Origin: Sporopachydermia quercuum
Taxonomy: Eukaryota
Direction: 5' to 3'
DNA: 64,000 bases
Assembly: GCA_001599295.1 (NCBI GenBank)
Contig: BCGN01000009.1
Location: 788,413-852,412 of the forward strand
A program made the translations under genes and the position numbers. Below the pieces are notes generated by a model. The model saw nothing but the letters and a program-made list of their open reading frames with translations, was not told the DNA's origin and ran no database searches. This document shows positions 9,483-60,608 of the stretch, one piece after another (the stretch's first letter is position 1; every line of letters starts with the position of its first letter).

Positions 9483-10059
9483 AGTACACTCCAGATTGCT
9501 TACTCTGTAGCCGTCGCAAGTCTTTTCTTCTCTTAATATATTGGTACACGATGGAAATTGGTAAAGCGAGTTCTACGTTATTCGCAAGGAACATCAGAGT
9601 TAGGTATACAGAACTCACCACGGNACCGCATGGAATATCGGGTTGCGTTAGGTGGATACTCTGACGAAGAGTGGGCAAAAGACCTTAAGCCTTGAAAACA
9701 TGTTTCTGGAGATGTTGTTGCTTTTGCGAAGCCACCAATTTCTTGGAGGCAAACTACTTGTTGCACAATCCGTCTAGGAGCTAGGGATGCAGGGTACTTT
9801 TTACTTACGTCCTTTCAAATGAGTACTCTTGGTTGATAAACATGATTAGTTCTATGTCATTGGAATGTAGCCGTCCTCATCGCTGATAATTATTGATAAT
9901 CAATCTGCGTTACAATTTGAGCACCACTCGGAACAGTACGTCAGATCTAAGCACATTGACACCAAGCATCAAGTTATTAGGAACAGAATTGAAGGAGGGA
10001 CTCCGGATTTTGCTAATCTTAATACAAATGAGATTNCTGCTTATATTTTGACGTTAGAT
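9483..10059 (+). mobile_element. Degenerate Ty1/copia-type RT C-terminus plus RNase H remnant (may extend upstream to ~8720)
   Basis: Manual translation gives QIAYSVAVAS..*..RWKLVKRVLRYSQGTSELGI...LGGYSDEEWAKD..*K.VSGDVVAFAKPPISW. After a frameshift it reads IIDNQSALQFEHHSEQYVRSKHIDTKHQVIRNRIEGG...AYILT. These match the copia consensus HWxAVKRVLRYLKGT / GYSDADWAGD / GGPISW / DNQSA / RSKHID / ADILTK. Stops and frameshifts are present. A purine-rich GGTGGAGGG followed by TG at 10145-10155 could be the PPT/LTR start. Confidence 0.88.
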
Positions 10060-12968: not shown

Positions 12969-13009
12969 TGCTACTGGATGTTAGTCAAACCAGTCATTTT
13001 TGGAGCATA

Positions 13010-40362: not shown

Positions 40363-42483
40363 TGTAGATGGAAATTTGGATAGTTTTTATTGCGATTGAT
40401 GAGAAAAGTTATTAACGTATTGAAATATATTGGTAAAAACAGACTTTACGAGAGAAATAAGTGAATTGCAGTGTGATGATGGTGAGCAATCCAATTTTAA
40501 CATTCAGATCATATTTACTCACAATACCTATTCACCATGTCGCTCTCATATCTCATTCTTGCACCTTATGCTTTGCAGCGATTTTCTTCGTCATATCTCT
40601 TTTTCCAATAAGTATATTCCACTTTATTTCATCTAGAATTGATAAGTACATTTAAGTTTAATGTCTATTTATTTATGTAAGTTATCCTGTCAAGCAGAAA
40701 GAGGAGCTTGATGGACGGATTGTCCTGTGGGTTGAGTGGTGAAAGCAACAGAAACACTTTTTGGTATGTTGTGCAATACGTCATAGTTGGAAGATTATGC
40801 ATATGTTATACATAATCTTGCATTAACTAAAAAGGAGCCTTACGCGACCATTTTAGTTCATTGAGCTTTCGGAACCTTAAATGTATGAGAGTCAGGAAAG
40901 CACAGTTATACAACAAAGATATTGTATTGCTTGTGAAACAATGAGATTGCCAAACTGGATATTCAATCTGAAGAATACATGCTTGGAGTGTTTGAAGCGT
41001 GATTATTGGAAATATTTCCCTGGTTCTAATCTGTATACTGTTTGTGATAACTTGATACCTTTGACCATGAACAAGCCATAGGTCCTCTTCTAAGACATAA
41101 TTATCTCATGTCCTATTTCGTATATCTATCTCGCGCGACAAAGTTAACTTGATGGTGAACATGGGGACTAGTGATATTACTCGTGACATCTTTACACGAA
41201 TCAATAATTCACATATTGTTTACTTCATATTGAGGGTTTATTTTATTATACCTGGTATAAACAATCATATATATATATATATCTATATTTGGTCAAATTT
41301 CCGAAGTCTGAATTTTTCATATGTATATCAACTGAATTCGTTTGTTTGTTTACTCTGGAATTATATGTTTAAAATTCCTACATAGCATGCCCACTTTTCG
41401 CCGTGACGCGTCAAACATGAGAATGCCAATATGGATCTATATGCACAGGCATGCCAGTTAATGCTAAAGTGGGCATCAGATGGCTCGATTGATTTCAAAT
41501 AACGACTGATCTACAACATATTTTTTTGATATGGTATCGTTTGATAATCGATACAACTGAAAAATTTCACACTTTAACATTTTTTCTTTCTGNAGCTGGA
41601 GAGCTGATTTCAAACTGCTGGGGTATGAATCATCCTTCAAACATTAACGAGTCATTGTAGATCTTCTCTGTAGTACTTGCCTACTCTTCAGAATGATCGC
41701 TTGGTGGCTCCATGATTCGTTTTCTTGATAGAAACCACTTCTCAAGAGTTTCAACCTGCAGTCCTTCTTTGTTACCAAATTTCTACTTTAGGAGAACAAA
41801 AATTCCTTTAATAGATCTTTTTTCACATCATAGAAAACTTATTCAGTTTGATGATGTTTCGATGAGAAAACAAAGTTTCAAACAAGCTGCAACACCTGCA
41901 GAGACATGGATGGAACAAAGTGTACCAACTCGTACCTTCAAGCAACTTTTCTGATACAAATTAATGACCAAAATCAACGCTCAAATAACTGTAAAATAAG
42001 TAAGTTCTTTTTTTGAAATCGCTTTTTACTTATATTCCAAAATCAATCTCGCTACAATGGAGGAACGGTACAACTTACAGTTATCCTGGAACAAGGTGCA
42101 AGGGTGTTCACAGATGTCCTAAAAAGTATCTATTCTGAAAAATCTCTGTTCTGATTACATCAACAAATAACAGCCTAGACTTGCATTTTACGATCTTGTA
42201 AACTACCCCTCTTTTTACTGCTAAAATCAAGAAGCTTCAGAACATCTCCAAAGGCCACCCAAAACTCAATTAGTGCATCCCGCTTTTATATCAATTGATG
42301 CCTACCAATAGCTTGGTCAAACAACTTATAATTCAACTATTTAACTAGCTGAGACTACTCCGAACATCTCAATCCTCCTTATTCTTTATCCTCCTTTCAA
42401 ATCCCCTGTATCTCTGCTCCTCAATCCCCCCAAAGACCCCCTCATCATACTTTTCTTTCTATTTTGGATTACATAATCTAAAG

Positions 42484-42494
42484 TGAAAAAATTT
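42484..42494 (+). promoter_or_regulatory. RRPE-like element upstream of PSE1
   Basis: TGAAAAAATTT about 300 bp upstream of the ATG. Short motif that could occur by chance. Confidence 0.35.
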
Positions 42495-42788
42495 CCGTCC
42501 GATAAATTTTCGTTGATTGGTACACAAACACATTTTGAAATATCCACAAACATCAACTACCCATTGTCTATCAACAACAACTATTTTCAGTTATCATCCT
42601 CATCTTTATACACGTCGTTTGACAGCTCACTGTATATATTGCACTACATTAATTGATTATCACCATTCAAATCAACTGTTAAGCCATCGTAAAATCCTTT
42701 AGGATTATTCCGTAGTGAGAGCCTTCAGTTAACAGATCATCGGAACAGATTGACGGATTCAAATCTCCGGTAGCACTCTACAACTAAG

Positions 42789-45700
42789 ATGTCGTTCAAC
42801 GTTCCGACAGAGACGATGAATGCATTACTGCATTTATTAGAATCTCTAGCATCGTCAGATAATTCAATTCGTGCCGCAGCCGAGAAATCATTAGCGGAAC
42901 AATGGCTCTCGTCCGAAGGAATCCAATATTTACTTGTTGGGCTTGCAATTCAATCCGTCTCTGGTGATTCCGATAGCCTGAGATCCTTTGCTGCTGTGCT
43001 TTTCCGAAGAATGGCTCTTAAACAGCCAGAAAACTCTACAAATCCTATTGCACGTTCAATTGATGTGATTCCAGAAGCAACTAGAAGCTATATTAAGTCT
43101 ATTCTTCTATCTGGCTTTTCAGAGAAACAGTCTAATTATGTCAGACATAAAATCAGTGATGCTATCGCTGTTCTAGCTAAACCTACTAACATCAGCGCTG
43201 ACATAGAAGAAGAATCATCTGTATATATTGACACCGATTGGCCTGAGCTTTTACCTGCATTGTTTGTTGCTACTAATAACCGGGAAGACCCCAGTTTCCG
43301 AGAGTCCGCGTTCCGAATATTTGCAGCTATTTCCAATTCAATCAATCCCGGGTATCTGGATTCCATTATTCCCGTATTTGCAACAGCTTTCACTGATGCT
43401 TCCGAAGACGTGAGAATAGCCGCTATTACCGCGTTTGTTGCCTTTTTTCAAGGATTGCCGAAGAAGGCCTGGAAATCACTTACTCCGCTTTTGCCCGAAC
43501 TTCTGAACGGACTTCCTCTTTTGCTTGATTCCGGGAACGATGCTGCTTTAGGTTCTGCTCTAGAAGCATTAATAGACCTAGTAGAATTGGCACCAAAACT
43601 TTTCAAGCCGATGTTTTCGGTAATGACGGACTTCTGCATCTCAGTCGCTAAGAACAAGTCAATGGACCATGCCCGAATCTCGGCCATTATGCTGCTTATC
43701 ACCTTCTCTGACGTATCACCTAATATGTGCTCTGCTGATCCAAACTATTCCGAAGCTATCATCTTGCAATGTATTTCCATGATGACCGAAATCTCGGAAG
43801 ACGACGAATCGGCGGCCGAGTTCTTAGCTGCTTCCGACGAGGAAGACGACTCAGACGAAATAGAAGAAGCATATTCTACAGCTAGACAAGTCCTTGACAG
43901 ATTAGCCTTGAACTTAGGGTCTCCTGCAGTGCTCCCAAGCTTATACAAATACTTGCCAATGCTTCTTTCCTCAAACCAATGGCGGGAGCGTCATGCAGGA
44001 TTGATGATGGTTTCTTCAGTAGCAGAAGGCTGTCGTGACGAGTTAATTGACGATACAGAGAAAATCTTAGACTTGGTAATACCTTTAATTGAAGACAGCC
44101 ATTACAGAGTGCAACACGCATGCTGTAATGTTCTCGGGCAGCTATCTACAGATTTTGCTGATGATATCGAACTGAACTTCCATGCCCAAATCCTCCCCGC
44201 CCTGATCTCTCGCTTACAGCACGGTTTACCACCGAAAGTTCAAGCCCACGCGGCTGCAGCGTTAGTGAACTTCACGGAGAACTCCACCCAAGAAATCCTC
44301 GATCCTTATTTAGACCAATTGCTACTTGGGTTATACCAGCTTTTATCCACTGATATAGTGTATCTCCAAGAACAAGTACTCACTACAATTGCCATTATAG
44401 CAGGTGTGTCAGATAGACATTTCGGGAAGTACTATGACGGATTAATGCCAATGCTAATGAATTTCATGCGCTCAGCATCAGAAGACATGATTGGCGTACA
44501 AGCTAAATGTATTGAATGCTCCTCGTTGATTGCGTTATCTGTTGGCCGGGAAAAGTCAGGTAAAGACTGCGGAGAGCTTATGGAGATTTACGCCAGCTTG
44601 CAGAAACTTGCGGGTGGAACCGGGGCTGGAGCCGACGCCGGAACCGAAGACTCCGATGACCCCAGAGCTGCCTATTTGGACCAAGCTTGGGGCAGAATGT
44701 GCCGGTTGATCGGAAAGGACTTCCTACCATACTTACCGACAGTATTACAGCCGGTTCTCCAAATGGCTAAACGGAAACAGGACGTCCAAATCCTTGAAGA
44801 TACTACCGATGCAGAAGAACTGGAACAAGAAGAAGGCTGGGACGTTGTCGCTGTGAGAGGTAAACATTTAGGTATTCATACAGCTTTGCTGGATGGGAAA
44901 GCTTCTGCAATTAGATTATTAACTATCTATGCAGCAGCTTTGCAAGAAGACTTTGCTCCTTACACGGAAGAAATCATCCGAGACGTTCTTTTACCAGGAC
45001 TGGAATTCTATTTCCATGATGCAGTTAGGTACTGCTGTGCGCATGCCGTCCCTGCAGTATTGAAATGTATTCAACTGGCCAGACCTACTGAGGAAAAATA
45101 CTTACTAGGTCTATGGTCACCTTTAGCTGATAAGCTATTAGAAGCTTTCTACCGAGAGCCGTTAGTGGGGCTCCTTCCAATGTACTATTCATCATTTGGA
45201 AGCTGCATTGAGTTGTTTGGAGGAAAGAAACCTTATATACTAAGCGAGGCACAGCAGAAAACCTTAGGCCAGGATGTTGTGGCTAATTTGACCGATCTTC
45301 GGGCCCGAATTGATCAAAGAGAAGCCGGAGATGATGAATACACCGAAGAAGTGGAAGAAGAAGAGGACGGAGAAGAAATTGATAAAGAATTAATCGGAGA
45401 AATGAGCAAAGCCCTTAGAAATGTGTTCCGAGCAGTCGGGGAAACATTTCTCCCGGTATTTGAATCAGACGTGTTGCCGGCGATAGTGGAAGACCTCGGA
45501 GCCAACGGAAACAACTCACGAAACTTATGTCGGGAGTTTGCCCTTAGTGTTTTGGCCGATTTCACTGAAATATACGGAAGCAAATCCGTCCCGGTTTATT
45601 CCGCCACATTCAGCCGAACTCCAATCTCAGCTTACCTTTCAGATCCGGATGCTTCAGTAAGACAAGCCGCAGCCCAGTACGTTGGAAACTTGGCCCAATA

Positions 45701-46229
45701 CGGTGGTGACCAATCATTTTATCAGCCTATCATAATCTCCTGTTTACCTCAACTTTTCTCCATCATCACCGCTTCCGACGCTAAGCTTGCAAGAAACGTC
45801 GCCACATCTGAAACAGCCCATGCGGCTATCGCCAAAATTCTCCTGTCCTATTCCGACGCCGTGAGAGCTGCCGAGCCTAGCTCTTATACCCAGCTTCTTT
45901 CCACTTGGATAAGCTTCTTCCCGGTGTATGTTGAGGACAACGCAGCCCCCTATTCCTATGGATTTTTATCAGTATTAATGGACTCCAAATCAACTGGAAA
46001 ATACGTCGCGGGAGAAGAATGGAACTCAGTGATTGAATCAGCTTGGAGTAGCATTTTCCAAGGTGTTATTAAAGCTTTGAGTGTGGGTGCTATTGGAGGT
46101 AAAATAGCAGAAGGAACAGTAGAAGCTACCAAGAGATTATTGCAGACTTGCAATCCTGACGAACGAATGAGGATAGTAGAGAGCTCTTCTGATGAGTTCA
46201 AGAGGGTTATTCAGAAATGGTTTAGTTGA
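42789..46229 (+). CDS. PSE1: Importin-beta family karyopherin (importin-5/Kap121)
   Basis: 1146-aa HEAT-repeat protein: SSDNSIRAAAEKSL, RSFAAVLFRR, ARQVLDRLAL, WRERHAGLM..SSVAEGC, RVQHACCNVLGQLSTDF, VQAHAAAALVNF, WGRMCRLIGKDFLPYL, GKHLGIHTALLD.K, FYFHDAVR. Confidence 0.9.
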   Translation: MSFNVPTETMNALLHLLESLASSDNSIRAAAEKSLAEQWLSSEGIQYLLVGLAIQSVSGDSDSLRSFAAVLFRRMALKQPENSTNPIARSIDVIPEATRSYIKSILLSGFSEKQSNYVRHKISDAIAVLAKPTNISADIEEESSVYIDTDWPELLPALFVATNNREDPSFRESAFRIFAAISNSINPGYLDSIIPVFATAFTDASEDVRIAAITAFVAFFQGLPKKAWKSLTPLLPELLNGLPLLLDSGNDAALGSALEALIDLVELAPKLFKPMFSVMTDFCISVAKNKSMDHARISAIMLLITFSDVSPNMCSADPNYSEAIILQCISMMTEISEDDESAAEFLAASDEEDDSDEIEEAYSTARQVLDRLALNLGSPAVLPSLYKYLPMLLSSNQWRERHAGLMMVSSVAEGCRDELIDDTEKILDLVIPLIEDSHYRVQHACCNVLGQLSTDFADDIELNFHAQILPALISRLQHGLPPKVQAHAAAALVNFTENSTQEILDPYLDQLLLGLYQLLSTDIVYLQEQVLTTIAIIAGVSDRHFGKYYDGLMPMLMNFMRSASEDMIGVQAKCIECSSLIALSVGREKSGKDCGELMEIYASLQKLAGGTGAGADAGTEDSDDPRAAYLDQAWGRMCRLIGKDFLPYLPTVLQPVLQMAKRKQDVQILEDTTDAEELEQEEGWDVVAVRGKHLGIHTALLDGKASAIRLLTIYAAALQEDFAPYTEEIIRDVLLPGLEFYFHDAVRYCCAHAVPAVLKCIQLARPTEEKYLLGLWSPLADKLLEAFYREPLVGLLPMYYSSFGSCIELFGGKKPYILSEAQQKTLGQDVVANLTDLRARIDQREAGDDEYTEEVEEEEDGEEIDKELIGEMSKALRNVFRAVGETFLPVFESDVLPAIVEDLGANGNNSRNLCREFALSVLADFTEIYGSKSVPVYSATFSRTPISAYLSDPDASVRQAAAQYVGNLAQYGGDQSFYQPIIISCLPQLFSIITASDAKLARNVATSETAHAAIAKILLSYSDAVRAAEPSSYTQLLSTWISFFPVYVEDNAAPYSYGFLSVLMDSKSTGKYVAGEEWNSVIESAWSSIFQGVIKALSVGAIGGKIAEGTVEATKRLLQTCNPDERMRIVESSSDEFKRVIQKWFS

Positions 46230-47526
46230 TGATTAATGATAGGGTGAATAGATAAATATCTGAGTGAATTGTTACTAGGACAGTTTAAAGCGAGAAGAAA
46301 AGAAGAAAAAGAGAGAATAAAAACTGAAAGAAGTGCTTCTTTATAGGAAATATATCCCGGTGTTGTTGCAATTGATCGTATACTTGGTAGTGTGTTAATA
46401 ACAGTTGTTTGAATGTTTTTGAATGTGTTTCATAGATTGCTTGGATAAAATGGAACATGTCGAGAGATAGCGTCATACTTTTAGCTTTAATATTTGAGAC
46501 GATAATCTAGGTTGAATTACTATTTCTCCTGGTGCAGTATGGATATCAGGAGAATCTGTTGTACGTATAGTATATTTATTCCAATGTATGTGTGACACAT
46601 GAAACTAGTAAAGTATTGGCGGAACAGAGAACGAATTAGAGAACTTGGCTGTTTGATGGTTGAAACACAGTACAATATGATGTTAAAGAAGCAATGGAAC
46701 CGTCACAATGAAAGGGTGAACTGCGGAAGATTCGATGTACGTTTTCTCCTGTGTGGGAGATCATTTGATGGTCAGATAGAATCGATGGAATTCTTATAAC
46801 AGCTGCTTCAGCAGTTGATTCAACTGTTGGTTCGATAATCAATTAGAAGCAATGTTTGATCTGTTTCAATACTTGTTGTTTGATTTATTGTTTGGTTGGT
46901 ATCAATGCTTCCTAATGATAGTGCTGAAGCATCAAGTGTACTTACTAGGTACTATGTAAGTGTGGTATGTTTATACAGGCAAATGATTGGTAACATTGTT
47001 TAAATCAACACGTTTTAATACATTTTATCGTCATTTAATANCAATTGATTTAACAATTCAAGTTATAATGCTGAAAATCCAGATTTCGTTGATTTGTTTC
47101 AATGACTATTCAATCTTATATTTAGTAGCAATGTTAAGTGTTTACGTAATCTGATATTAGAGCTTGAGGAGATGCAGCTGTTGGTTTGGTTTTCCATTCG
47201 TGAAAACTAGGTAAGATTTCTAATATAGTTCTGTTCTAAGAGAGCCTATTCTTTAGGTAAACAAGCTTCACTCTACTTTTACTGAATCACCGATTACCTG
47301 ATCTCCCAATGGTCTATCGTATTCAACAGCTCATCGCTCTCTGTCCCAACCCCTCATTTGAGACATCATCCGGGTCATTTGAATCAAAGCCTGTCATTTA
47401 TGGAACCTTTTTCCTTGTACAAACTCATCGATATAAGCCTATCTGTCTCACATCGCTTGCTCTATTCACACTATGATAGTCCAAAAACGTCCGTTCTAGC
47501 CAAATGGGTCATTAATTGACTCAGAA

Positions 47527-49135
47527 ATGTTCGGCTGGAAAGATAAGAAACAATTCTTCGGGTCAGTAGACCGGTTCTGGTCTTTCTACCACCTAGAAAT
47601 CCATGACCCGAAAATCCCCCACACACTACCAGAAGCAATCAAAATGGATGAAAACGCGAGAAACAAAAACTGGACAAATGCAATAATTGACACAATTGAA
47701 GAATACACTTATAAAAACGTATGGGTGGAAGTTGACCCTAAAGGTTTGCCGTCAAATTCCCGAGTTCTCCCTGCAAACTTTCTCTTTGATTACGAGCATG
47801 TAGCCCGCGAACATATTGAACGGAAGATATGGATCACTGTAACCTCCGAGCACACTTTCCGTTCGGCTGGAACCGGCCCCGTCCCCTGTCTCGGAGGTTC
47901 TCTTCCGATTTTTTCTCGCGTTTGCCTCCCGACAAGGACTATAATTGACCAAATTCTTCATCCCAGATATCTACCTCCACGCTGATATTCCCGACAGTGC
48001 CCCGTTGTATGCCAAGATTCCGAACGTGGGGAAAACTTACCGAGGAACAACATACAGACTTCGGAAGTGTTTATACGGTCTTCCCTATGCCGACGAATGC
48101 TGGATCCAGACAATGACCGATTATCTCAAGGCTTAAAAAGGCTATGTCAACATCCCCCAGTTCCCAGGCCTTTTTTTCTTTACCTACGAAGAAGGAAACA
48201 ATTGTTTGCTCCTATTGCATCAGGACACTGTATTATTAGCTAGCAATGGTACCTTAGCATTAGGGAAAACAATGGAAGCGATGTATTCGTTGAAATCGGT
48301 TATAANAGATAATCCGTTGTTTTTCCGAGGGTTCCAGCTTCGGACAAACTCTCGGCATGAAGTGGAGATATTTCAAATTGAGAACATAGATAAAGTTTAC
48401 TCTCGGTTGAATTTAGACGATTTTGAAGAGCTGACTAGACCCGGCGGAGAATATTTTGACGTTGTTTTGGCGGGTAATAAGTCGGAAACAGAAGAAGTCG
48501 GCGAGACTCGGAAACGCAAACAAGTCTTATCTCTCGAACAGAAAGCTAAAGTTTCCGCTTTTCCTTTTAAGCAAATCATCTCCGAGCTTTCTGCTATTGC
48601 GCAAGGAACTCGGCCAGATATCGGATGGCAAATGGAAATTATCGGACAATTGGATAAACGCGATTCTAATTACAGCCTGTTGAAAGCTCTAGAACATATT
48701 TGCACTTACTTGTATGCCACCAAAACACTGTGCATAAGGTATAAGCCGTGGAATGAGGACGATTTCGGAATATTCTCGGAAGAGTTAAGCGAGCTAGAAA
48801 CCGATCCCGACTTTCCCCTTAATGAGAGAAGTAAGCTATTCCGAGAAACGGATAAAATATACGAAGAGCTGGATAAACTATTGGAAGGAGTTCATATCTC
48901 GGGATATCTCGGGTTCACCTGGCACGAACAACTCCAGAGTTTTTCCGTGGCTTCCTTATTGAGATTTGCCGGCGGACCCGTTTCATGGAAATACGAAAGC
49001 ATCGGTTATTGCTCCCGAAAGCTGATTGAAGCTAAAGCCAAGATTTTCTGCTTAGCAGATAACATATTTGTTCTGTATATGCGATTTTATATTCCATGGG
49101 AATACATCGCATGTTCGGTGTACCATCATGACTAA
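47527..49135 (+). pseudogene. Disrupted Ty1/copia-derived RT-RNase H gene; paralog of 51507-53261
   Basis: Frame 1 reads IPHTLPEAIK..NWTNAI....KNVWVEV...RKIWI. After a +1 frameshift near 47880 it reads SPVSEVLFRFFLAFASRQGL*(47942)LTKFFIPDIYLHAD...YRLRKCLYGL....CW...DYLKA*(48134)KGY...PGLF...LLLLHQDTVLL...FRGFQL...GTRPDI...LEHICTYLYATK...SGYLGFTW...FAGGPVSWK. This is colinear with copia RT/RNase H. Confidence 0.8.
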
Positions 49136-51506
49136 TAAGGAGCTGAAATATCAGGAGGTATATGCAGATCGGGACGGAAATATGACGGATCATATGAATA
49201 GCAATGAAAAGAGCGATAAAAGCAGTAAGAAGTCCCGAAAGCAGTTGGAGATGGCGANATTTCCGAGAAGCAAGTGTTTCAGAAAGCGCCAGGATCGGAA
49301 CAGGAGCCGAGAAAAGAACGGGAACAGGTGCGGGATGATGCTCGGGAAGTATCGGTTTCAATTTCAGCAGGAAAAGATCAAAGCACTAATGAACGTAATA
49401 ATAACCTCAAAATGATTAGAGAATTGAGCTATAACAACAATATAAATTGAGAGTTCCAAATATGTTATTTACGCCGGAATCCAGCGGAGAGAATTTATTT
49501 CCTGGCCAGCTTTTGATTAAAAGTTTACCCGAGCCCGAATTCCGTTATTGTTCGGCTGCTGTTGGAATGGGCAATATTTATTTGTAGTCAGCAAGGATTG
49601 GAAGGATTGGAAGAACGGAAATATATGGTAATAAGATTTACAGTATCTTGAAACGTAATGGAAATAGGAGTTAGTTAATGTGAAACAACGCAATAACATA
49701 GTAACAAAGACATAATACACACAGTTAATCTAACAAGTAGTAAACGTATTGTTTTCTTAATTTCAGCTTATAAATTGACAATGACTTGCTAGTATTAAAT
49801 TACGGTAGTGTGCAGCTAGGTAAGAATAGGGCTTATAAACTAGTTATAATTATATGTAACGGATCAGACTAACGCCTTCGTGAGGAGACTCATCAAGATT
49901 ATATTCTGTAGCGTTCCTACAGGAGTTGATGGTAAATATGGACTTTAGGGTCAACCTATTTCATGTTATATGCTATATGTTGATCGAAACGTTCACTGGA
50001 ACACGTTTCATCGCATTAAATGGTAAATAGAATCAATATGTTAACGTTCTAGGGATAGCTACATAGAAATATGGCTTCTACGTAGAAGGAGAAGCAGAAT
50101 AGCTGCAAATTATACACTGACAATTACTACAATGTAGCAACAATAGTACCAATGGGTAACTTAATGAATCTTTCAGAAGGATCAATTTACTGGCTTTTTA
50201 TGATACAACAAAGAGTAAGGAAGAATAAATAGCTCTCACATGCTGGTTTTTTNGTCTTTTCTAGAGTATTTCCGTTCAAATTAATGCATTCTACACAGCT
50301 TCTCAGTTTCACTGAATAAACGTTCTCAGCATATACAGATCTTTCGTTGTTGGGACTGAAGGTTGAGATACTACCGAGAGGTGTCTAAGGAAGATATCAT
50401 AGAATCCGCATAGCTTATCCCAAAATCCTATGAAAAGTTGGTATATGTTCGTTGATACTAATAGTAACGTAGGAACGGTAACACATCTTCCCAGCAAGCG
50501 CAATCAATGGAACCAGCGTTGTGGACAGTAAAAGGACAACGTCCTCAAAATAATGTAGAAAAGTGGACTTGTTTGAACCCTTGTTGACGTTCAGAGGCAA
50601 TTCTACAATTACCTGCTATCAATTCAGACTTCAGCTACATACTTATAATTTAATTGATGGTTATGCTTCCTTATTCTGAAACTCTTTGATAGGGGTATGT
50701 ATGTACGATAGTTTAAGCATCTGCTCTGAACTCATCAGACTTTCAACGGTTTGCACGTGAAGGTTAAACGATGCCGAAAAGTCCCCCTGTTTTGGAATAA
50801 AGGTTCCTCTTCATTTTCTCAATATTGAAGGTTTCGGATTAATTGAAAGAGTTTAACTTCTTAATTCGGCTAAGTAGTCCAAATTTGGAAACGTTTTCGG
50901 GAGTTTCAGGGATGATACTTTATCCTTAACTATTTTATCTTATCAAAAAGTCCGATGACCGGAATTAGACAATTATTCGAGAGATAAGCTAATATATACA
51001 ATTCATTGACTTTGGCCAAAAGAAAGAATAAGAAGAGAAAACCTCCAAATAAATATAAATCACCTTTCTATCTTCTATATCATTCCTTTAAAGATTACTC
51101 TCAGTGCTTTTTCTTTGATCATATCTTATCGTTCCTTCTATTACTATAATAAACTTTTTCTTGAATTCTAGAACGAACCTTATTTTTAGAGAAGTGCTCG
51201 AGTTTTGATAAGCAACGTGAAAGTCATCTCGCTAGATCAATCCTTAGTTGAATCTTTTTGCTTTTCTCTCTCCTTTATTTTGCCGCCAGCGAGTTTTTCT
51301 ATGAACAAAGCTTCGAGAATAGGCAGTTCATATAATGTATTGCTGTATGATAATAGGTAAAAGTTATTGATATTATCATCTTTTCACTGTTAGTCTCAGT
51401 GTGTTTAGGTAGCTTATGGGTAGATACGCTACCTTCATCAAATCAGCTATTTCATTATCATTAATGGCTGATTTGTATTTATGATATTTACAATAGCTGT
51501 GTAACT

Positions 51507-53261
51507 ATGTCCTCGGATAAGCTTAACCTGGTTTCAAGGTTAGAAGCTATATTGAGGTCTAATGGTAACACGACAGCTCCTAGAAGCTGTCGTGAAGCGT
51601 TGACGTGGGACAAACAGTACGATTGGAACCCGTGGCAATGCGAATATGCTAAAGAGATTGACCGTTTGGTCAAAGCTGGTGTTATTAACGTTATGCCTGA
51701 TCCTGTTGGTTCAAATGGTTTATTGCTAAGAAAAAACTATAGTGCGAAACTTGTATTTGATCAGCAGGAAACCAGATATTCTACTGATAGAAAGGTTTGG
51801 ATCATAGCTGAACCGTTGGTTAAAACCAAAAGTCCCTATGAGAAATTAAAGGTTGAGATTGATATAGGGAAAGTGTTGTTTGGTGGCAGTAATGTGGAAG
51901 ACCCATTTGTTTCCAACGAGTCTGTCAGACTAATCACAGCAATCTCTGCAAAAAGTTCACATTATATGCGTAGTTTCAATGTTATTGCTCCTGTCGGTAT
52001 TCCAGTTGATAGTTCAGAGGATTTGGGATACATCACCTTGCCTTCTATGGGAAGGGTTAAGGGAGGAACCTATAAATTGAATAAATACATATACGGTATT
52101 GATGGCTGGAAAGAAAGATGGTTTTTCTATCTGAGTAATATGCTGGAAGCTGATCTACATTTTAAGAGCTCTAGTAAGAGCTCTGGTGTTTTTCACAAAT
52201 TAATGGTTGATAATGAATCAGGTGGTGCTAAAGCTTCTAAACAGTTATTGGCCTTCGAGTACCCTGATAAACTGTTGATATCAACTGATAATTATGAACA
52301 ACTGCTTAGCACCATTTATAAATTTCCGGTTACTAGTACAGCCCTTTCTATTCCTTCTGAATTCAAAGGATTTGAATTCAGGTTTGAAGCAAATGGGGAT
52401 ATTATTTTACATCAAAGGAAAACTGTTCTCTCAATCTGTGAGACTTACGGTAAAGGAAGACTGACTCCTGTTTATTCGCCTTACGATAGATACTTTTCTG
52501 CTATTGAACAGAACGATCGCTTCTTGATTTCAGGATCTTTGGGCTACTTTTCCTATGACAATGTGCTTCGAGAGCTGATAGATGTTGCTACTAAAACTAG
52601 ACCTGATGTTTTTAGTATAGTAAGAACATTGATAAATTCACGATCGGAAATGTATGGTAATGGCTCAAAGGAAGTTTCGCACTGTCATGAAATGGCAATG
52701 AAAAGATTATTGAATTATTTATCCTATACGAGAAATTTCGCATTGGTGTATCGGCACAGTAATGATGAAGATGACGAAATGGAGGAGGTAGATGGACAAT
52801 TATCATCTGATCGACTTTGCACCTTGTCAACTGTATCGGACACGCTGCAAGGACTAGCATTTCTGTTTAATCAGCCTGTGACTGATAACTGGGAATTTTC
52901 GAGTGTAATAAATTATGGTGGAGCGATTGTTCAGTGGAGCATTCTTCAGTTGGGCTCGGACGTTGGATTCTCTGAGAAAGCAGCCGTTGTGTGTGAAAAG
53001 GAAAGTAGAAATATCACTGAATGGTTAAACGAAATGACTGTAGAAAGTAATAGGATCAAGCAAGTCAACTGGAAAATCCCAGCAGAACAATTTGAGTCAA
53101 TCAGTTCAATGTCTGGTGCTTTGAATGAGAGTATCATTTCTACNATTGAATTATCGTCGGAGAACATTTGGTCTCCTGAGATCATTGTTAAATCAGTTAA
53201 AACGCCATATTTGGCAAAGTTGAGAAGTTCTTTAGGACTTTTCGAATGTGGTAGCTCATAA
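51507..53261 (+). CDS. Intact stand-alone Ty1/copia-derived RT-RNase H-like protein, predicted catalytically dead (putative domesticated gene)
   Basis: 584-aa ORF: APRSCREAL..W..EYAKEIDRL, ESVRLITAISA, YKLNKYIYGI....RW, FKGFEF, LHQ, KTRPDV, HEMAMKRLLNYLSYT, YGGAIVQWS, ending KLRSSLGL like a copia Pol terminus. The YVDD position reads YPDK. Confidence 0.8.
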   Translation: MSSDKLNLVSRLEAILRSNGNTTAPRSCREALTWDKQYDWNPWQCEYAKEIDRLVKAGVINVMPDPVGSNGLLLRKNYSAKLVFDQQETRYSTDRKVWIIAEPLVKTKSPYEKLKVEIDIGKVLFGGSNVEDPFVSNESVRLITAISAKSSHYMRSFNVIAPVGIPVDSSEDLGYITLPSMGRVKGGTYKLNKYIYGIDGWKERWFFYLSNMLEADLHFKSSSKSSGVFHKLMVDNESGGAKASKQLLAFEYPDKLLISTDNYEQLLSTIYKFPVTSTALSIPSEFKGFEFRFEANGDIILHQRKTVLSICETYGKGRLTPVYSPYDRYFSAIEQNDRFLISGSLGYFSYDNVLRELIDVATKTRPDVFSIVRTLINSRSEMYGNGSKEVSHCHEMAMKRLLNYLSYTRNFALVYRHSNDEDDEMEEVDGQLSSDRLCTLSTVSDTLQGLAFLFNQPVTDNWEFSSVINYGGAIVQWSILQLGSDVGFSEKAAVVCEKESRNITEWLNEMTVESNRIKQVNWKIPAEQFESISSMSGALNESIISXIELSSENIWSPEIIVKSVKTPYLAKLRSSLGLFECGSS

Positions 53262-53712
53262 GACTAGCTATACATTGGATTTCATTGGGTTTTATAGAGA
53301 GATATGGAGTTATATAGGTTATAATCTGCAAATAATAATTAATCAATAATAAGTTGTTATACATCAGTTCTTTGATGCAGTTAGAGAAATTTCGGAAATG
53401 ATGTGAAGGCTGCTGATAGAGATTTTTTAATGATTATATAATCATATATTTTCTTACCTTGCGNGTGAGTTATAACACTCAACTGTAGGATTATTATACT
53501 ATATAAAATACCAATCAACTTGATATTATTTTCTGTTTAGATCTCTTTATATCTCGTTTAATTGCAATTGAGTTCCTAGTAAAATATGGATAGTATTCTG
53601 TCCATCTGTTCTCATTATCGTTCATTTCCTTTTTGATCGGTACATCCTCAACAACATTGTATCTCGCTTCAGAAGCCTCTGTAAAGCTTCATTTGACCGA
53701 CTCCATACAAAT

Positions 53713-53723
53713 AAAAAATTTTC
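53713..53723. promoter_or_regulatory. RRPE-like element upstream of PXR1
   Basis: AAAAAATTTTC about 250 bp upstream of a ribosome-biogenesis gene. Confidence 0.4.
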
Positions 53724-53964
53724 TATATTGTTTGATAAAAGCAGCCATAAGATAATATTTATTAAGCAAGATAACTAATCAGTGAAATGGTAAGCATCGA
53801 AGAGAAATATGGTTATTGAATGGGAGAAAGAGAGATATGCCTGATAACATACATGAGGTATTGCATCAATATTGATAATCTTATCTAGAATATATCTGCA
53901 GATATACACACTCAGAGACATAGACAGATTTGTATTCTATCACAAATACTATATACAAATCACA

Positions 53965-54750
53965 ATGGGATTGGCAGGAGCTAAGAAATCTACTAGAATA
54001 GCAGCAGACCCAAGAAATACACATTGGTCAAATGATACATCACGCTTTGGTCATCAACATCTAGCCAAACTTGGATGGAAACCCGGTTCTGGTATAGGTA
54101 GAAAAGGTCAAGGAAATACTGTCCATGTGAAGGTCGCTATTAAAGATGATATGTTCGGATTAGGTGCTCAAACAGCTAGAGAAAAGAAGAAAGGAAGTGG
54201 TGATTTTGGAGATGAAAGTGTGGGTCTGGATGTGTTCCAAAAGATTTTAGGTAGATTAAATGGACAATCAGAACAAATAGAAAAAGCGTTAGAAAGCAAA
54301 CGAGTAGAGCTCATTGAAGGTAAATGGGGAATGACATTTGTCAAAGGTGAAGTGCTGAAAGCAACTTGGGATGCAGAAAGTCAAACCGTGAAACGGAAAC
54401 GAGATGATGAAAGCGAATCTGATGCTAGTGAAGATGAAAAAGAGGTAGCAGATAAAAGGAGTAAGAGAGAGAAGAAGAAGAGCAAGAAGGAAAGGAAAGA
54501 AAAGAAATCAAGGAAATCAAAGAAATCAAAGAAAGGAGATAAACGGAAGAATGGTGATGAAAGTCAGAGTGAAAAAGCAAAGAATGAAATAATATCAGAT
54601 GTCCAGTCTTCCTCAATATCTCCTTCACGATCACAATCACCAGTCCCTCCTGTTGCCGCAAGATTAGCTGTGCGGTCGAAATGGATTGCACAGAAACGAG
54701 CAGCAACAATAGATGCAAAGAGTTTGAATGAGATTTTCATGATTAAATGA
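53965..54750 (+). CDS. PXR1: G-patch ribosome biogenesis protein Pxr1/Gno1 (PinX1)
   Basis: ATG at 53965: MGLAG....DPRNTHWSNDTSRFGHQHLAKLGWKPGSGIG (G-patch), GLDVFQKILGRLNG, KKE-rich region, RLAVRSKWIAQKRAA.ID.KSLNEIFMI. Confidence 0.93.
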   Translation: MGLAGAKKSTRIAADPRNTHWSNDTSRFGHQHLAKLGWKPGSGIGRKGQGNTVHVKVAIKDDMFGLGAQTAREKKKGSGDFGDESVGLDVFQKILGRLNGQSEQIEKALESKRVELIEGKWGMTFVKGEVLKATWDAESQTVKRKRDDESESDASEDEKEVADKRSKREKKKSKKERKEKKSRKSKKSKKGDKRKNGDESQSEKAKNEIISDVQSSSISPSRSQSPVPPVAARLAVRSKWIAQKRAATIDAKSLNEIFMIK

Positions 54751-55052
54751 GAAGGGTGGGCATTTTATAGCAGTAATGAGTAGTCTGTGATATAATGGAA
54801 ATAGGATAAAGGAAACAATTTTGCATTGGGTTGAGACAAATTTATGATGAATTAGGAGTTTTGATATTCTTAATGTATTTAGAGGTTTACAAAGAATACA
54901 ATGCGTAGTTTTAGTAGTAAAACAGATTTCGTATGATACAGTCTCCACTGTTTGACCAAGTGGAGTTTATTTATTCATTTATTTTGAATTTTTATCTAAT
55001 TTACCAACAAAAAATAACACCAAAAAGATAAAACTTTTTCTTACTTTTCAGT

Positions 55053-56750
55053 TTAAAGGAACAGAACACCAGCAGTTCCTACAAACAAAGTTGAGAAGAA
55101 AGAGAAAGCCAGGATGTTCCATAACCGAACATCGACAGTACCTGCAAGATCTTCACTTTCATCGCTAGAACCAGAAGTGGATGATTCTCCTGAGCTGGAA
55201 AATGATGATCTGTCGCCGCTTCCAGTGCTAGATCCCGAACTGACAGTTGCCATTTCTCTCGCTAAACCAGTAGCTCTGGCGACAGAGATTCCACTGATGG
55301 TGCCGGTACCACTTTCACCAGCTTCAGACAACCAAGAAGAACAAGAAGATTCAACATCTTGAGCATTAACAATTTGTGCAGCGCCATCAAAGTCACAAGC
55401 AGAACTTCTTCTGTTGTTTTCTTGGTAGTATAAATTCATGACAAAAGAAAGCCTTTCTTTAGGGGAACATGGAGAAAAGGCACCATATTCACCAGTGGTA
55501 CCATTGCCAGAAATGCCATCGCAAGAGATTTCACCGCAAATGTATTGGTAATATTCTTCATAATCTTCTTCTTCAACATCATCGCTGACAACGCATTCAA
55601 GAGAACCATACATACAATCACAGACATCAACATTTGGAGGAGGAGGCAAATCGGTAGAAGCTTTCCAGAATTCCAAAGTGGATGCAGGACAAGAAATGTC
55701 AGATGTGCTAGGAGTATAGTCATCTAAGGCAACACCAGTAGGGTTGACGGTTGCCATTTGAGAAGAGAGGTATCCATAGTCGGCAAGAGTAGAGACTTCT
55801 CCATCAGGTAAAATGGTTACAATGCCATAGTTGTTTTCCTCCTCGAAATACATATAAACAATACCACCAGACCAAACATCGGTCATATTATCAGAGAACA
55901 AGACTGGGACATCAAGGAATTCTCTTGGTTGGACTTCGTTACAACCATACTCAGAAAAGAAAAGAGGAACATCAAAAACACTGAATTCTTCCGTTCTATC
56001 GGCATAGCCAGATTCTTGAAAGGTAGAATCACCGCACCATTCGTACATGTTGATACCATATATATCAGACTTGACCGATTCGTCACCACATAAGAAGTAT
56101 TCGGCAAGGTATTGTCTGGTATCGGCATCATCATTAGTGGAATAACCAACGGGGATATCTCTATAGCCCTGTTGCTTGATGTAAGCTTTGCTGTCACGGA
56201 CGGCGGCCTTGACGAATGGTGATGCATCAGTGTTTGATGCATTGTTAGTTACTTCGTTACCAGCAAAGAAACCTAAAACAGAAGGATATTCAGCCAAAAT
56301 GTCAATCACAGATGCATAACGATCAAATAAAGTCAAATCCCAGTTAGGTTGATCTCTATTTATGGAATAACCGGGTTCAGATAAATCAGCTACAATGTAA
56401 ATACCGGCATCAGCAAACATTTCAATACATTCAGTATGATCCTTGGATGTATCAATGGCGTAAACTCTCAATAAATTGGTTCTCAAGTTAATGAGATATG
56501 GCAAATCTCTTTTACAAGTTTCAGGATCTGCTAAAGGATCGTTTATAGTAACTGAACCATCCCCAGTAGCATTGGCGGTATCTTGTTGATATGCCATACC
56601 TCTGACGAAGAATTGACTACCATTGTTAGAGTAGAAGAATTTAGATCCCACAACCTCGATAGTTGGGAAACTTCCATCTTGGCTTTGAGCTGAGGTGAGC
56701 TTTGCAAGCCCAGCTAAGCATAAACCTACAGTAGACAAGGAGAATCTCAT
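55053..56750 (-). CDS. GAS1: GPI-anchored 1,3-beta-glucanosyltransferase, GH72+ with X8/Cys box (Gas1/Phr-like), copy A
   Basis: Signal peptide, [44 protein letters not shown], Cys-rich X8 domain, Ser-rich stalk and hydrophobic GPI tail. Exact ortholog (GAS1/PHR1/PHR2) uncertain. Confidence 0.88.
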   Translation of the reverse strand: MRFSLSTVGLCLAGLAKLTSAQSQDGSFPTIEVVGSKFFYSNNGSQFFVRGMAYQQDTANATGDGSVTINDPLADPETCKRDLPYLINLRTNLLRVYAIDTSKDHTECIEMFADAGIYIVADLSEPGYSINRDQPNWDLTLFDRYASVIDILAEYPSVLGFFAGNEVTNNASNTDASPFVKAAVRDSKAYIKQQGYRDIPVGYSTNDDADTRQYLAEYFLCGDESVKSDIYGINMYEWCGDSTFQESGYADRTEEFSVFDVPLFFSEYGCNEVQPREFLDVPVLFSDNMTDVWSGGIVYMYFEEENNYGIVTILPDGEVSTLADYGYLSSQMATVNPTGVALDDYTPSTSDISCPASTLEFWKASTDLPPPPNVDVCDCMYGSLECVVSDDVEEEDYEEYYQYICGEISCDGISGNGTTGEYGAFSPCSPKERLSFVMNLYYQENNRRSSACDFDGAAQIVNAQDVESSCSSWLSEAGESGTGTISGISVARATGLAREMATVSSGSSTGSGDRSSFSSSGESSTSGSSDESEDLAGTVDVRLWNILAFSFFSTLFVGTAGVLFL

Positions 56751-58916
56751 TGTTTTGGTGGGGTGGCTAGTATGAAATTAGAGATCAATTGAGAGCAAAT
56801 CAAGGAGATACCTTAGAGTATTCTACTTGATTCTAGTTGATCAGCGAGGACGTAAGAGAAAGGTGAGAAGAAGAAAAGAACTAGCAGCGATGAAAAGAAT
56901 GAAGAAGTGGAAGGATGGAAGTATTTGTTTAGTGAAATTACCACTCATTTTGTTTCCCTTGGAATCACCAGAAAGGCCAGAGAGCCAAGCAACAATACAA
57001 ACACAAACACGAATCACACGAAAAAAAAAATGCCAGAAAACTCTATATTTTAAGGTGGGTAAATAGAGTTTGAGTTATCGACCACAGTTTGAAGGGACTT
57101 GAAACTTATTTAGAGTGTAATAGAGCTTTTTCAACGAGCACTGCCTGGTAAGGTTGCGATTGCTTTAAAAAGAGAATATTGTGAGGGGCCTGAATGTAGC
57201 ATATTATAGAAACTTGTTCAAGTGAATCAGTTTTATGGGGAAAGCATTTTATAATGAAGTCTCAGATGCCACAAGCAGACATTTCCCAAAATAGTGTTCA
57301 GAGCTGAACTTGATCTACGACTACCAGAGAAAACTACTATAACCAGCTGGGTTGCTTGAAGTATGAATGAGAATATTAAGCAAGATTAATGAGATATCAA
57401 TTAGTATCCATGATTTGGTAAATCTTTTCATTCGTTTTGTTCCAAGTGGTGTATTTTCTTTGGCATTCTTGACATGAATGTATTTTTCTCTCATTTCTNA
57501 AACCAAGTTAACCTTAAACATGCAGGGCTCTTCAGGGTCCTTTAGTTTGAACGTTAGATCACAACTCAAATGTTCCATGCGACAAAGATAATGGATATGG
57601 AATTAGGATAAAATAATTATCATTATTATTGAATTGAGAAAAAGTCTGTTCAGTTAAAGCAAATGTAAGTGTTTGTAGACTGACTTGCATTCTATAAAAG
57701 ACAATATAACTATCAGCAAACGAAATATAATACAGTTAAGTTAGATAGAATAGAAAAAAAGATCAACTGGTCATACCAAACAGAAANCAACACAACCGCT
57801 AATGGTAGATAGAAAATCTGTTACAATCATCTTTATTTAACGAAATCATTTTAAATGTTCATCATTATACACTTCAATGTTACCTACAATCTAACAGTGC
57901 CCTCAAAATCCATTTGAGGATGATGTTTCTTCGAAGGAACTTTGAATAGTATTCCCGATGGGTTTGACAGGTCTCTTGCATTCAAATGGGGTAATCACTA
58001 ATTTCGCGTTCCGTCAATTGGTTTTGCTCAAATTTCTACATATATACCGCGTAATCTTATTTATTTGGAAACTACAAGGTCAATAAGTAGATATAACTCG
58101 TAAGATGCAATATATATAGAATGTCAAAGCAGTCTATTATTAGATCTTTCAAGGGAGAGCAATAATAACTCAGCAGACCACCGACAAGGAATGGATTTAT
58201 CTGGAAGGTTAAGAAGTTAATTTAACACCTCGATTCTTAGACAAAATTCTGTTCTCTTTTTCTTCTGCTCTATCAAGTCTGTCTCATTCATATGATGAAA
58301 AAAATCCTTATTGAATTCTTCTGAACGAACAAATTATAGATTGTTGATTCAAATTCCCATTCATACTCTATCNTACCATAGCCTACTGACATAGCAAGTA
58401 CTCTCCAAGTCAAGACTTGTCCTGTTTGTTTGATTAACTATTTATTTATTTCCCTTTCGTGGGTGTTTATTTATCACCAATTGTCCCANGCCAAGATATA
58501 AATTACCCTCTACATGTTTTTATAGAAAATTTCAAAACTAAGTTTAATAAATATTCGAGGATTTAAAAGGTTTGAAAATAGTTATAACTTTGTTTTTATT
58601 TAGGATATTAGAATCTTCAATTTAATGATATCTTAAACCTTAAATAGTTCATATATAAACTTTATCCTTGATCATATCTTTCTATCTTTTTTTTAATTCG
58701 TCTTTACCTGCTCTTAAAAGTATAAAACAGCTTTAACCCCTATGAATATCAAGGGTTTAATCTATTACTTTTAATTGCTTCTATGCTGAAAAATTGACCT
58801 CTTAATAAGTGCTCCAGCCCAACTTCTACCATTCTTTTTACCTTATTCAACCTATCTACAATGCAGTATCATTTAATAATATTTATACTTATTTTATACA
58901 CCTAATAATAACCAAT

Positions 58917-60608
58917 TTAAACAAGAATAGCACCAATACTGGTGATCATGACAACAGATAAAAGTGAAACAAGTGCGACTTCAGTCATAAGAGATGCACC
59001 TTGAGCAGAGTACCTTCCAGCAGCTGCGTTATCTGAAGTTTCACTTGAATCTCCACCAGTTGTAGATTCAGAACCAGATGATGATGATCCAGTAGAATCA
59101 GAAGATGAGTCTCCAGTATTAGTAACAGAATCCTGACCAGTGATGGTACCGGCGATAGAAGCAGTTATAGTTCCAGTACCAACTGATCCTGCATCGTCCA
59201 AAGCAGCAGAACAAGCTGATAGAGTTGTAGCATCGTCATTAATAACAGCTGAACCACTGAAATCGCAAGAATCAGACTTCTTTCCGCTACTTACATAGTA
59301 TAAATTCAAAACAAATGAAAGCTTTTCTTTTGGTGAGCAGAATGAGAATGAGCCATACTCACCAGTGGTACCATTAGCACTAATACCTGAGCAGTCGACT
59401 TCATTGCAGACGTAGCTGTATAAATCCTCATAATCATCTTCATCAACATCGTCGCTGACAACACAACCCAATGATAATTGCATACAGTTACATATGTTTT
59501 CATTAGGAGTTGGTGGTAAATCAGTAGAAGCCTTCCAGAATGCCAATGTTGATGCAGGGCATTCTAAATCAGCAGCAGTAGGAGTATAATCAGCTTCTTG
59601 AACAATTGTTGGACTGATTGATGCAATTTCACTGCTGAGATAACCAAAGTCTTCTAATGTAGAAACAGAATCACCATCGACAGAAACAAGTCCATAGTTA
59701 TTAGCTTCTTCGTAATACATATAGACAATACCACCAGACCAAATATCATCCATGTCAGATCCATACAAGGCTTGAACCTCAGTGAACTTTCTTGGCTGAA
59801 CTTCATTGCAACCGTATTCTGAGAAGAATAAAGGAATGCTTAAGTTCTTCAATTCTTCAGTTCTATCTGCGTAACCGGATTTTTCAAAAGTGGAATCACC
59901 ACACCATTCATACATATTGATACCATAGAAATCGGCTTTTTCATCGTCACTACCGCAAGCAAAATAATCAGCAATAGCAACTCTAGTATCGGCATCATCA
60001 TTAGTGGAATAACCAACGGGGATTTCTCTATAACCTTTATCTTTAATATATGCTTTTGAATCTCTTAAGGCAGCTTTAACAAAAGCAGAAGCATCAGTAT
60101 TGGTGGAATTGTTAGTTACCTCATTACCAGCAAAGAAACCTAGGACGGAAGTATAATTTTGTAGAGAGTCAATAACACTTGTGTATCTATTGTATAAGTC
60201 AACTGTCCAAGCAGGGCTATCACGATTGATTGACAGATCAGGTTCAGATAAATCAGCAATGATGTAAATGCCTGCATCAGCGAACATATTGATACATTCA
60301 CTATGGTCATTATCAGGATTGATAGCATAAACACGAATGACATTGGTTTGCAAATCCATCAAATACGGTAAATCTCTTTCACAAGCTGATCCATCGGCTA
60401 AAGGATCACTGTATGAATCACCTTCGGTCAAATTTGCTGTGTCTGCTTGATAGGCAATACCTTTAATATAGAATTGAGAACCATTGTTCGAGTAGAAGAA
60501 TTTATTACCTTTGATTTCAATTGCAGGAGTTTCAGCATCAGCTCCAATTGCAACCTGGCACAAAGCTGCTAAACAAACAGCTAAGATCAATGACAATTTA
60601 TCGATCAT
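58917..60608 (-). CDS. GAS1: GPI-anchored 1,3-beta-glucanosyltransferase, GH72+ (Gas1/Phr-like), copy B
   Basis: Same motifs as copy A ([17 protein letters not shown]8 domain, GPI tail); tandem paralog. Exact ortholog uncertain. Confidence 0.88.

Follow-up and report, generated by a model that had tools for sequence, protein, structure and literature searches.

A young copia-derived reverse transcriptase–RNase H pseudogene beside an intact copy with dead active sites: the probable remains of an old host gene

Positions 47527 to 49135 (+ strand) of the window, the 64,000-nucleotide stretch of budding-yeast DNA analysed here, hold copy A, a copia-derived pseudogene of about 536 codons that comprises a reverse transcriptase (RT), a connection and a partial RNase H and carries three internal breaks. 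Its copia origin, its dead active sites, the reality of its breaks and the lack of long terminal repeats (LTRs) are firmly established. Copy A would be the young pseudogene of an old host gene, and the proposed history has a rough probability of 0.58. According to this history, a copia element left an RT-RNase H segment at the locus, which would have acquired its own ATG, lost dNTP-binding and catalytic residues and been kept as a folded non-catalytic protein. An old tandem duplication would have followed, the copies diverging to about 18-20% identity with both frames open. Copy A may later have lost its RNase H end and then, very recently, have received one frameshift and two stops (~0.02 substitutions per site; 0.003-0.08). 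The protein may have acted as a decoy restriction factor, a non-catalytic RT-RNase H that binds the Pol proteins or the primer-template of the element and jams copia reverse transcription, and copy A would have been freed from selection once active copia was gone from the genome.

The window corresponds to C9:788413-852412 of a 16.4 Mb, 15-contig budding-yeast genome. Its genes are long and intron-free, with Pfam matches to a ubiquitin protease, an M1 peptidase, Sec7, Sla1, Kre6, an importin, a G-patch protein and two GH72 glucanosyltransferases. The importin gene (end at 46229) and the G-patch gene bracket copy A and a second gene, copy B (51507..53261), both on the + strand. Copy B is a dead copia RT-RNase H gene with an intact frame of 584 codons, which ends where copia pol ends. 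The 2.4 kb spacer between the two (49139..51506) has no LTR-like repeat and no gag or integrase match, and is single copy in the genome. Directly past copy A, positions 49136-49500 have a GC content of 0.41; stops are scarce there in one + and one - frame (3 in 121 codons), and no profile matches. The glucanosyltransferase genes form a tandem GH72/X8 pair on the - strand (55053-56777 and 58917-60680), 3.9 kb apart and 72-84% alike in DNA blocks, a further local duplication near the RT pair.

The first frame of copy A starts with the ATG at 47527 and is open through 47985. Its first piece (47527..47842, +) is composed of ~30 residues followed by the start of a copia RT (P..L.EA...W) and by RKIWI, in which W (47830) replaces the invariant R of KARL. 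The RT-like reading resumes +1 base, in the frame of 47867; that frame has a stop upstream, at 47840, and the +1 shift therefore lies within 47843..47884 (+), the distal limit being approximate. The first-pass annotation had put it at ~47880, which is inside this interval, but frameshift-aware profile alignment places it at about 47858. Two in-frame TAA codons follow, the first (47942..47944, +) directly before RT motif A, whose Asp is itself a Phe (47954), and the second (48134..48136, +) between motifs B and C. Motif C reads HQDT (48218..48229, +): the first Asp is kept and the second is a Thr. With X at the stops, the reading after the shift matches Pfam RVT_2 with an E-value of 1.3e-10 and 41.7 bits (cut-off 31.6), and reaches 42.8 bits in the genome search. 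The frames and this match bear out the earlier description: three pieces join into a single copia RT-RNase H frame, interrupted by one +1 shift and by TAA codons at 47942 and 48134.

The distal part of copy A departs further from a standard copia Pol. A rough pattern match delineates a long acidic stretch that links the connection to the RNase H (48740..48895, +); by the same kind of match, the spacing from YLxxT to W amounts to 93 residues in copy A and 73 in copy B, as compared to 50-53 in 20 of 25 references and 63-74 in the other five. A long acidic insert in the same part of RNase H also occurs in one reference with intact active sites. The partial RNase H (48896..49132, +) is modelled, with low confidence, as three strands plus one helix, and its catalytic Glu is a Lys (49034). 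GYLG (48902-48913), which like HQDT reads as first annotated, probably sits at the site of the first RNase H Asp, the alternative register being TDPDF upstream. The frame stops at the third Asp: TAA TAA (49133..49138, +) comes directly after the residue aligned with it, whereas copia pol and copy B run on for ~60 more residues. The next codons of the same frame contain 4 more stops and have no RNase H profile match, which suggests that the truncation is probably older. A profile search of three frames past 49138 found no missing RNase H end, the same profile also failing on the open RNase H part of copy A.

The three breaks belong to the DNA of the organism. Runs X1, X2 and X3 each yielded a contig that spans positions 42000-56148; the runs represent two samples (X2 and X3 being one), and any of them may be the window's own source. 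These contigs, used here in place of raw reads, have 0 other letters and no indel in either gene. The breaks at 47880, 47942 and 48134, for which the first-pass annotation had advised inspection, are all present in them, and an assembly error was rejected, the two samples agreeing letter for letter over copy A. The sole difference in 14 kb lies outside copy A, where 4 bases at window position 46589 are present in the window and X1 and missing in X2/X3; a single 4-base indel between two samples is no gauge of population variation. Run X4 is from another organism, and genes A and B are not covered in it. An intron or a programmed shift was ruled out as the cause of the break, with no splice signal or known heptamer at hand: positions 47401-49300 contain no GT[AG][AT]GT donor, no branch point and no Ty1, Ty3, EST3 or antizyme +1 heptamer. 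These data also bear on the suggestion that copy A is still expressed through recoding, splicing or a shorter protein starting at an ATG after the second stop. Such a protein could draw on the 332-codon open stretch left after 48136, but no donor, branch point or known heptamer is available, and two TAA codons in conserved RT blocks as well as the shift would all need to be bypassed, making continued expression highly improbable.

Copy A is not an ordinary copia insertion. An RVT_2 profile search of the 16.4 Mb genome returned two candidates, both matching, and these are copies A and B, 2.4 kb apart on the same strand; as the genome searches score only the best candidates, such counts are lower bounds. 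The pair lies in a 7.6 kb region that occurs only once in the genome, and the flanks of A and B exhibit no common repeat longer than 34 bases and no LTR-like repeat. No recognisable LTRs that would mark an ordinary insertion, as contemplated by the first-pass annotation, thus flank copy A. A tblastn search with 39 copia proteins found no gag, protease or integrase near A or B, its earliest match being at 47608, although very old remnants could escape it. The only candidate for a polypurine tract at copy A is one 10-base purine run, and a target-site duplication cannot be sought without element ends. Copy A combines low copy number with the lack of element termini, as domesticated retroelement genes do. 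Both copies start 24-30 residues before the RT start motif, and copy A keeps the structural blocks P..EA, K.LYGL, RPDI, YL..T and GGP.SW in the order RT, connection, RNase H. An autonomous or intact Ty1/copia element was rejected: motif A lacks its Asp and motif C its second Asp, the RNase H is incomplete, and gag, protease, integrase and LTR are missing.

Comparison with 33 active-site-intact references indicates that copy A is predicted to be catalytically dead, like copy B, as had been proposed. The Arg of KARL is W in copy A, the motif A Asp is F, the K-Q of LKQ is P-Y and the second Asp of motif C is T; the same sites read W, N, D-G and K in copy B. In the references, the motif A Asp is present in 32 of 32 filled rows and the motif C DD in 33 of 33. 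These replacements in copy A require one base change at the KARL Arg, two in motif A, three in LKQ, two in motif C and one at the RNase H Glu. Among 38 columns that are at least 85% conserved in the 33 references, copy A keeps 27 and copy B 25 (references: mean 96%, lowest 86%), and those still kept in A and B are structural residues. Nine of the 11 changed invariant sites of copy A are also changed in copy B (P 2e-4), including the KARL Arg and the Asp of motifs A and C.

The number of stops in copy A is far too low for such a degree of change to have accumulated by neutral decay. In simulations under a simple substitution model, decay that changes 4% of residues (0.02 substitutions per site) leaves 1.8 stops, whereas decay to 28% of residues changed leaves 11.5, and 0 of 1000 runs of the latter kind ended with two or fewer. 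Two stops correspond to ~0.02 substitutions per site of neutral decay (95% range 0.003-0.08), while the branch to copy A or B amounts to ~2 amino-acid changes per site, the references used being from other organisms. Multi-base changes at catalytic sites together with only two stops point to a frame that was under long selection after catalysis was lost and was then recently released. Selection on the frame of copy A after the loss of catalysis is very probable, a strong inference from the reading frame. The firmest reading is that nearly all divergence of copy A, catalytic loss included, would have arisen while stops were being removed. As copy A is now broken, the evidence concerns past selection only. 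The GC content by codon position of copy A is coding-like (0.48/0.35/0.47; intergenic 0.34), and the codon-bias scores of A (z 1.9) and B (z 0.4) both fall within the range spanned by host genes (-1.4 to 6.2).

Ordinary copia relics of the same genome provide a comparator outside the pair. One, a connection-RNase H relic in the window (9495..10053, +), keeps its motifs and has 4 breaks in 186 codons. It lies in an 11 kb region without long ORFs (5630-16480) that also contains a weak RT scrap (10609-10764, -) and a doubtful integrase scrap (~12520-12800, +; E 0.04). The other, L013, is a decayed copia RT-RNase H (L013 420-1800, or C9:940.2-941.6 kb) situated within 500 bases of the contig end, with 12 breaks in 457 codons. 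These relics keep KARL, DNxS and KHxD while carrying many breaks, and the RNase H motifs are kept in L013. Together they hold 16 breaks in 643 codons as compared to 3 in 536 for copy A (P 0.01); on the 386 aligned codons of copy A alone, the contrast has a P of 0.058. Long selection followed by recent loss, as the first-pass annotation had it, is well supported by the decay simulation, the multi-base changes and this relic comparison.

Copy A could conversely be a plain fossil, from a highly divergent copia family, that never served the host as a gene; its LTRs and 5' half would have been worn away or deleted, and it would stand beside copy B by chance. It is indeed broken and has no homologue, the genome contains further copia fossils, the break-density contrast reaches only P 0.058 on the aligned core, and yeast copia families are unsampled among the references. 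Five key residues have nevertheless changed, three of them by two or three bases, yet there are two stops, a combination that neutral decay cannot yield; true fossils keep KARL, DNxS and KHxD and carry many breaks; and the ATG of copy A stands just before the RT boundary with no trace of integrase upstream. This renders the fossil reading quite improbable as compared to that of a former host gene.

The copia matches of the debris searches all fall in C9:798-942 kb, a stretch of 145 kb at the contig end and perhaps a former integration hot spot. The confinement of the debris to contig C9 makes the adjacency of A and B less surprising. No intact copia element was found in the genome searches. 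The only apparently intact LTR element met in them is a Ty3/gypsy element at C4:244-248 kb, with an open 1254-codon pol frame and an intact YLDD, to which belong the one integrase match and a strong RVT_1 match in the genome. At C1:296.6-300.3 kb, a telomerase-like RT is split into two open frames of 403+ and 330 codons; the 34 bases between them would suit a frameshift or a short intron.

Searches for closer relatives of the pair were negative. No orthologue of copy B was found at E<=0.001 among 7999 candidates, and none of copy A at E<=0.01 among 4903; among 6243 longer proteins, one ordinary copia was retrieved (E 0.28). A representative-protein search with copy B gave 39 matches, 38 of which have a YVDD-type motif; the top one was discarded as a homologue, being a repetitive pseudoscorpion gene model made of ordinary copia pieces. 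A metagenome scan for copy B returned 0 of 405 candidate stretches, and the single match to copy A (1 of 73) was dismissed as chance, a protein with no copia profile match. In the ESM Atlas, copy B falls in generic RVT_2 clusters and a piece of copy A in unnamed clusters at 0.92-0.93 plus one RVT_2 cluster, which are leads only. A PDB sequence search gave no match. Fold searches with predicted models retrieved retroviral and Ty3 RTs; the models were built on copia alignments, and these matches are therefore not independent. By these protein and metagenome searches, neither A nor B has a homologue closer than ordinary copia.

Sequence identity places A and B no nearer to each other than to ordinary copias: about 18-20% between A and B, 20% between A and the references, 21-23% between B and the references, and ~34% among the references themselves. 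The best scores to ordinary copias are 65 bits for A and 75 bits for B, with only 43-47 bits between A and B, and no DNA-level similarity was found between them. Phylogenetic trees do pair them. They were built with 33 references picked by likeness to copy B, none known to be from a yeast; the repetitive top match, three cluster duplicates and six short matches were left out and one longer-protein match was added. Under LG+F+G4, A and B are sisters with an SH-aLRT support of 97.9, both in a joint alignment and when each is aligned separately to the references, and under C20-PMSF with 99.7 (supports from short searches, with no bootstrap). When the two native relics are added (branches of 1.6-1.7), A and B still pair (98.9) and the relics are placed elsewhere; with branches equally long, they are not drawn to A and B. 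When separate origins were simulated under a model calibrated to the identities seen, 0 of 25 runs attained the likelihood gap of 10.4, as compared to 4 of 18 under default C20, which is more prone to convergence. AU tests (5000 replicates, six hand-chosen trees) do not reject separate placements (p 0.07-0.13), and a tree from the first 163 columns alone splits A and B. Identical replacements at conserved columns number 7 versus 4.8 expected (P 0.21), or 4 versus 3.1 in another count. Over 195 common columns, the BLOSUM score per column is 0.81 between A and B and 0.42 for either against L013, a contrast with P 0.01, 0.05 and 0.06 under three models, the corresponding identity contrast having P 0.21-0.35.

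The first-pass annotation had attributed A and B to one already modified ancestor and had called for their alignment and a clade test with copia RTs. The maximum-likelihood trees and the calibrated simulations agree with it, but the AU tests, the C20 simulations, the first 163 columns and the lack of an excess of identical replacements keep separate origins in play. It had also listed two motifs as derived features of the pair. Copy A contains RKIWI and PNVGKTYRGTTYRL, copy B RKVWI and PSMGRVKGGTYKL. The R-to-W change in KARL is common to both and found in 0 of 33 references, which upholds the first motif. The long acidic linker ahead of RNase H is a further trait that A and B have in common. 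The P..G...GGT.KL loop of the second, in contrast, is also present in the native relic L013, which keeps KARL and reads YI.GPTGLKYHGGT.KL there; its occurrence in an ordinary relic makes it weak evidence for a common ancestor.

The A/B stem (0.5-0.8 under LG) does not exceed the terminal branches that lead to active elements (0.3-1.4) and could thus be that of an unsampled active copia family. From the clade alone, one cannot tell whether an already domesticated gene was duplicated or one such family inserted twice. Adjacency, common strand, common start point and the trees favour the former, and tandem duplication of an already tamed gene is a likely, if not proven, source of A and B. Two separate domestications at a local hot spot, from the same or related copia families, with convergent loss of catalytic sites and later loss of A, would account for the AU results (p 0.07-0.13), for catalytic-site replacements that mostly differ (F/N in motif A, T/K in motif C, P/D in LKQ), for the lack of A-B DNA similarity, for the clustering of copia matches in C9:798-942 kb and for a GGT.KL loop that looks like a resident family trait. 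They would, however, require that a rare event happened two times over, within 4 kb, on the same strand and from the same start point, and A and B have in common the R-to-W change in KARL (0/33 references), a C-to-G and an S-to-E change, and a BLOSUM mean of 0.81, as compared to 0.42 for L013 against either. Separate domestications are thus unlikely, if less so than a fossil.

Both proteins are modelled with the RT palm, thumb and connection kept, but would be unable to bind dNTP or catalyse. The mean pLDDT of the models is 66 for copy A and 70 for copy B. The copy B model was derived from a copia alignment; superposed on the complex of Ty3 RT with RNA/DNA, it gives a Z-score of 10.8 and an rmsd of 5.4 (298 aligned). 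The RT core of copy B is basic (pI 9.3) and that of copy A acidic (pI 5.7), the median of the references being 9.1.

The putative decoy role is argued by analogy with DRT2 and p22, both capsid-derived, and is the least certain part of the history: given domestication, it is a tentative proposal. Rapid divergence, the lack of intact copia, relics more decayed than copy A and an Argonaute gene broken like copy A favour it circumstantially. It is disfavoured by the lack of a Gag to enter particles, by the acidic core of A, by the capsid origin of known yeast restriction factors and by the intactness of B though copia is apparently extinct. The Argonaute gene is the only Piwi match (C4:1039117-1041950, -) and has 3 stops (TGA, TGA, TAG) and 2 frame changes near its 5' end in ~940 codons, a break density indistinguishable from that of copy A; these breaks are read from the assembly, and introns could account for the frame changes. 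RNase III is represented by three open genes, with open frames of 623, 388 and 356 codons. The 623-codon one, which we take to be Dcr1-like from its domain layout, suggests that Dicer may be intact beside a broken Argonaute.

Alternatively, if domesticated, the pair may have had a host housekeeping role as a nucleic-acid- or protein-binding scaffold with an RT fold, A being lost as a redundant paralogue. Copy B is intact while no intact copia is found, and its RT core is still basic (pI 9.3) in a model, derived from a copia alignment, that superposes on Ty3 RT with RNA/DNA (Z 10.8). Nevertheless, ~2 substitutions per site per branch resemble a conflict gene more than a conserved scaffold, the long survival of A implies that it was not simply redundant, and the open frame of B is compatible with an equally recent release from selection (P 0.15 at 0.02 substitutions per site). 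Such a scaffold is about as likely as the decoy, and the history is common to both. A broader version of the decoy proposal sees in A and B what is left of a host family of dead copia RT-RNase H decoys acting at the Pol stage, the counterpart of p22/Drt2 at the capsid stage, which diversified in conflict and of which A decayed with Argonaute after copia extinction; this remains doubtful. Birth-and-death and a defence role, as the first-pass annotation envisaged, are both putative readings drawn from one pair.

On its own, an intact RT with dead active sites might simply be a fossil that survived by luck. With a second copy, deeply diverged and with a frame that outlasted catalysis, domestication becomes much more credible, and the breaks of copy A date a loss. 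If the decoy proposal is true, it would add a defence at the stage of reverse transcription to yeast biology and provide a testable case in which defence genes (A and Argonaute) fall into decay after their parasite has disappeared. Otherwise, the pair is still an unusual lineage-specific one in a single genome. For copy A, the history appears well supported, the paralogy probable and the function putative.

RT folds kept by hosts include the fungal rvt genes and the RT-like and RNase H-like domains of Prp8, the latter non-catalytic. Neither rvt nor Prp8 is copia-derived, and rvt proteins are active polymerases. With the RT-RNase H of Ty1/copia (Pseudoviridae) Pol (Pfam RVT_2, PF07727), copy A has in common the RVT_2 match, the domain order and the kept blocks; unlike it, copy A has no gag, protease, integrase or LTR, has its own ATG, has lost catalytic and dNTP-site residues and has a shortened RNase H, with ~20% identity to copia references. 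No copia RT-RNase H-only, non-catalytic host gene came up in searches of an open-access library of papers. RVT_2 is the sole Pfam match of A and B, with no capsid C-terminal domain. A precedent for copia-derived restriction in yeast is, according to the account cited, DRT2 (PMC10951436). Like DRT2 and p22/p18 of Saccharomyces cerevisiae, as those reports portray them, A/B would be a host locus from a copia-type element in a budding yeast, with a plausible model of dominant inhibition (PMC10951436, PMC13709905, PMC4599808). In the descriptions cited, DRT2 and p22/p18 derive from the capsid (Ty1 Gag), are close to a living element and have been tested (PMC10951436, PMC13709905), whereas A/B derive from RT-RNase H, are extremely diverged and paired, and are known from sequence alone. 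The described copia-derived yeast host genes are capsid-derived, and A/B come from RT-RNase H. The mammalian RTL1, PEG10, GIN1 and NYNRIN are likewise presented as single-copy, LTR-less host genes from LTR elements, but of Metaviridae/ERV origin and mostly from gag, protease or integrase, with no copia RT-RNase H-only gene among those that the source names; the same source argues against a silencing role for mammalian domesticated retroelement genes (PMC3670739). The Cbp1/Cbt pogo transposases of fission yeasts also form, as reported, a small paralogue family of tamed element proteins, and are linked to retrotransposon control; unlike A/B, they are described as of DNA-transposon origin and conserved with synteny across species (bioRxiv 10.1101/2022.12.06.519325; PMC7175516). 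The A/B pair resembles a domesticated retroelement gene, and stands outside both the Ty1/copia element class and the capsid-derived restriction factors.
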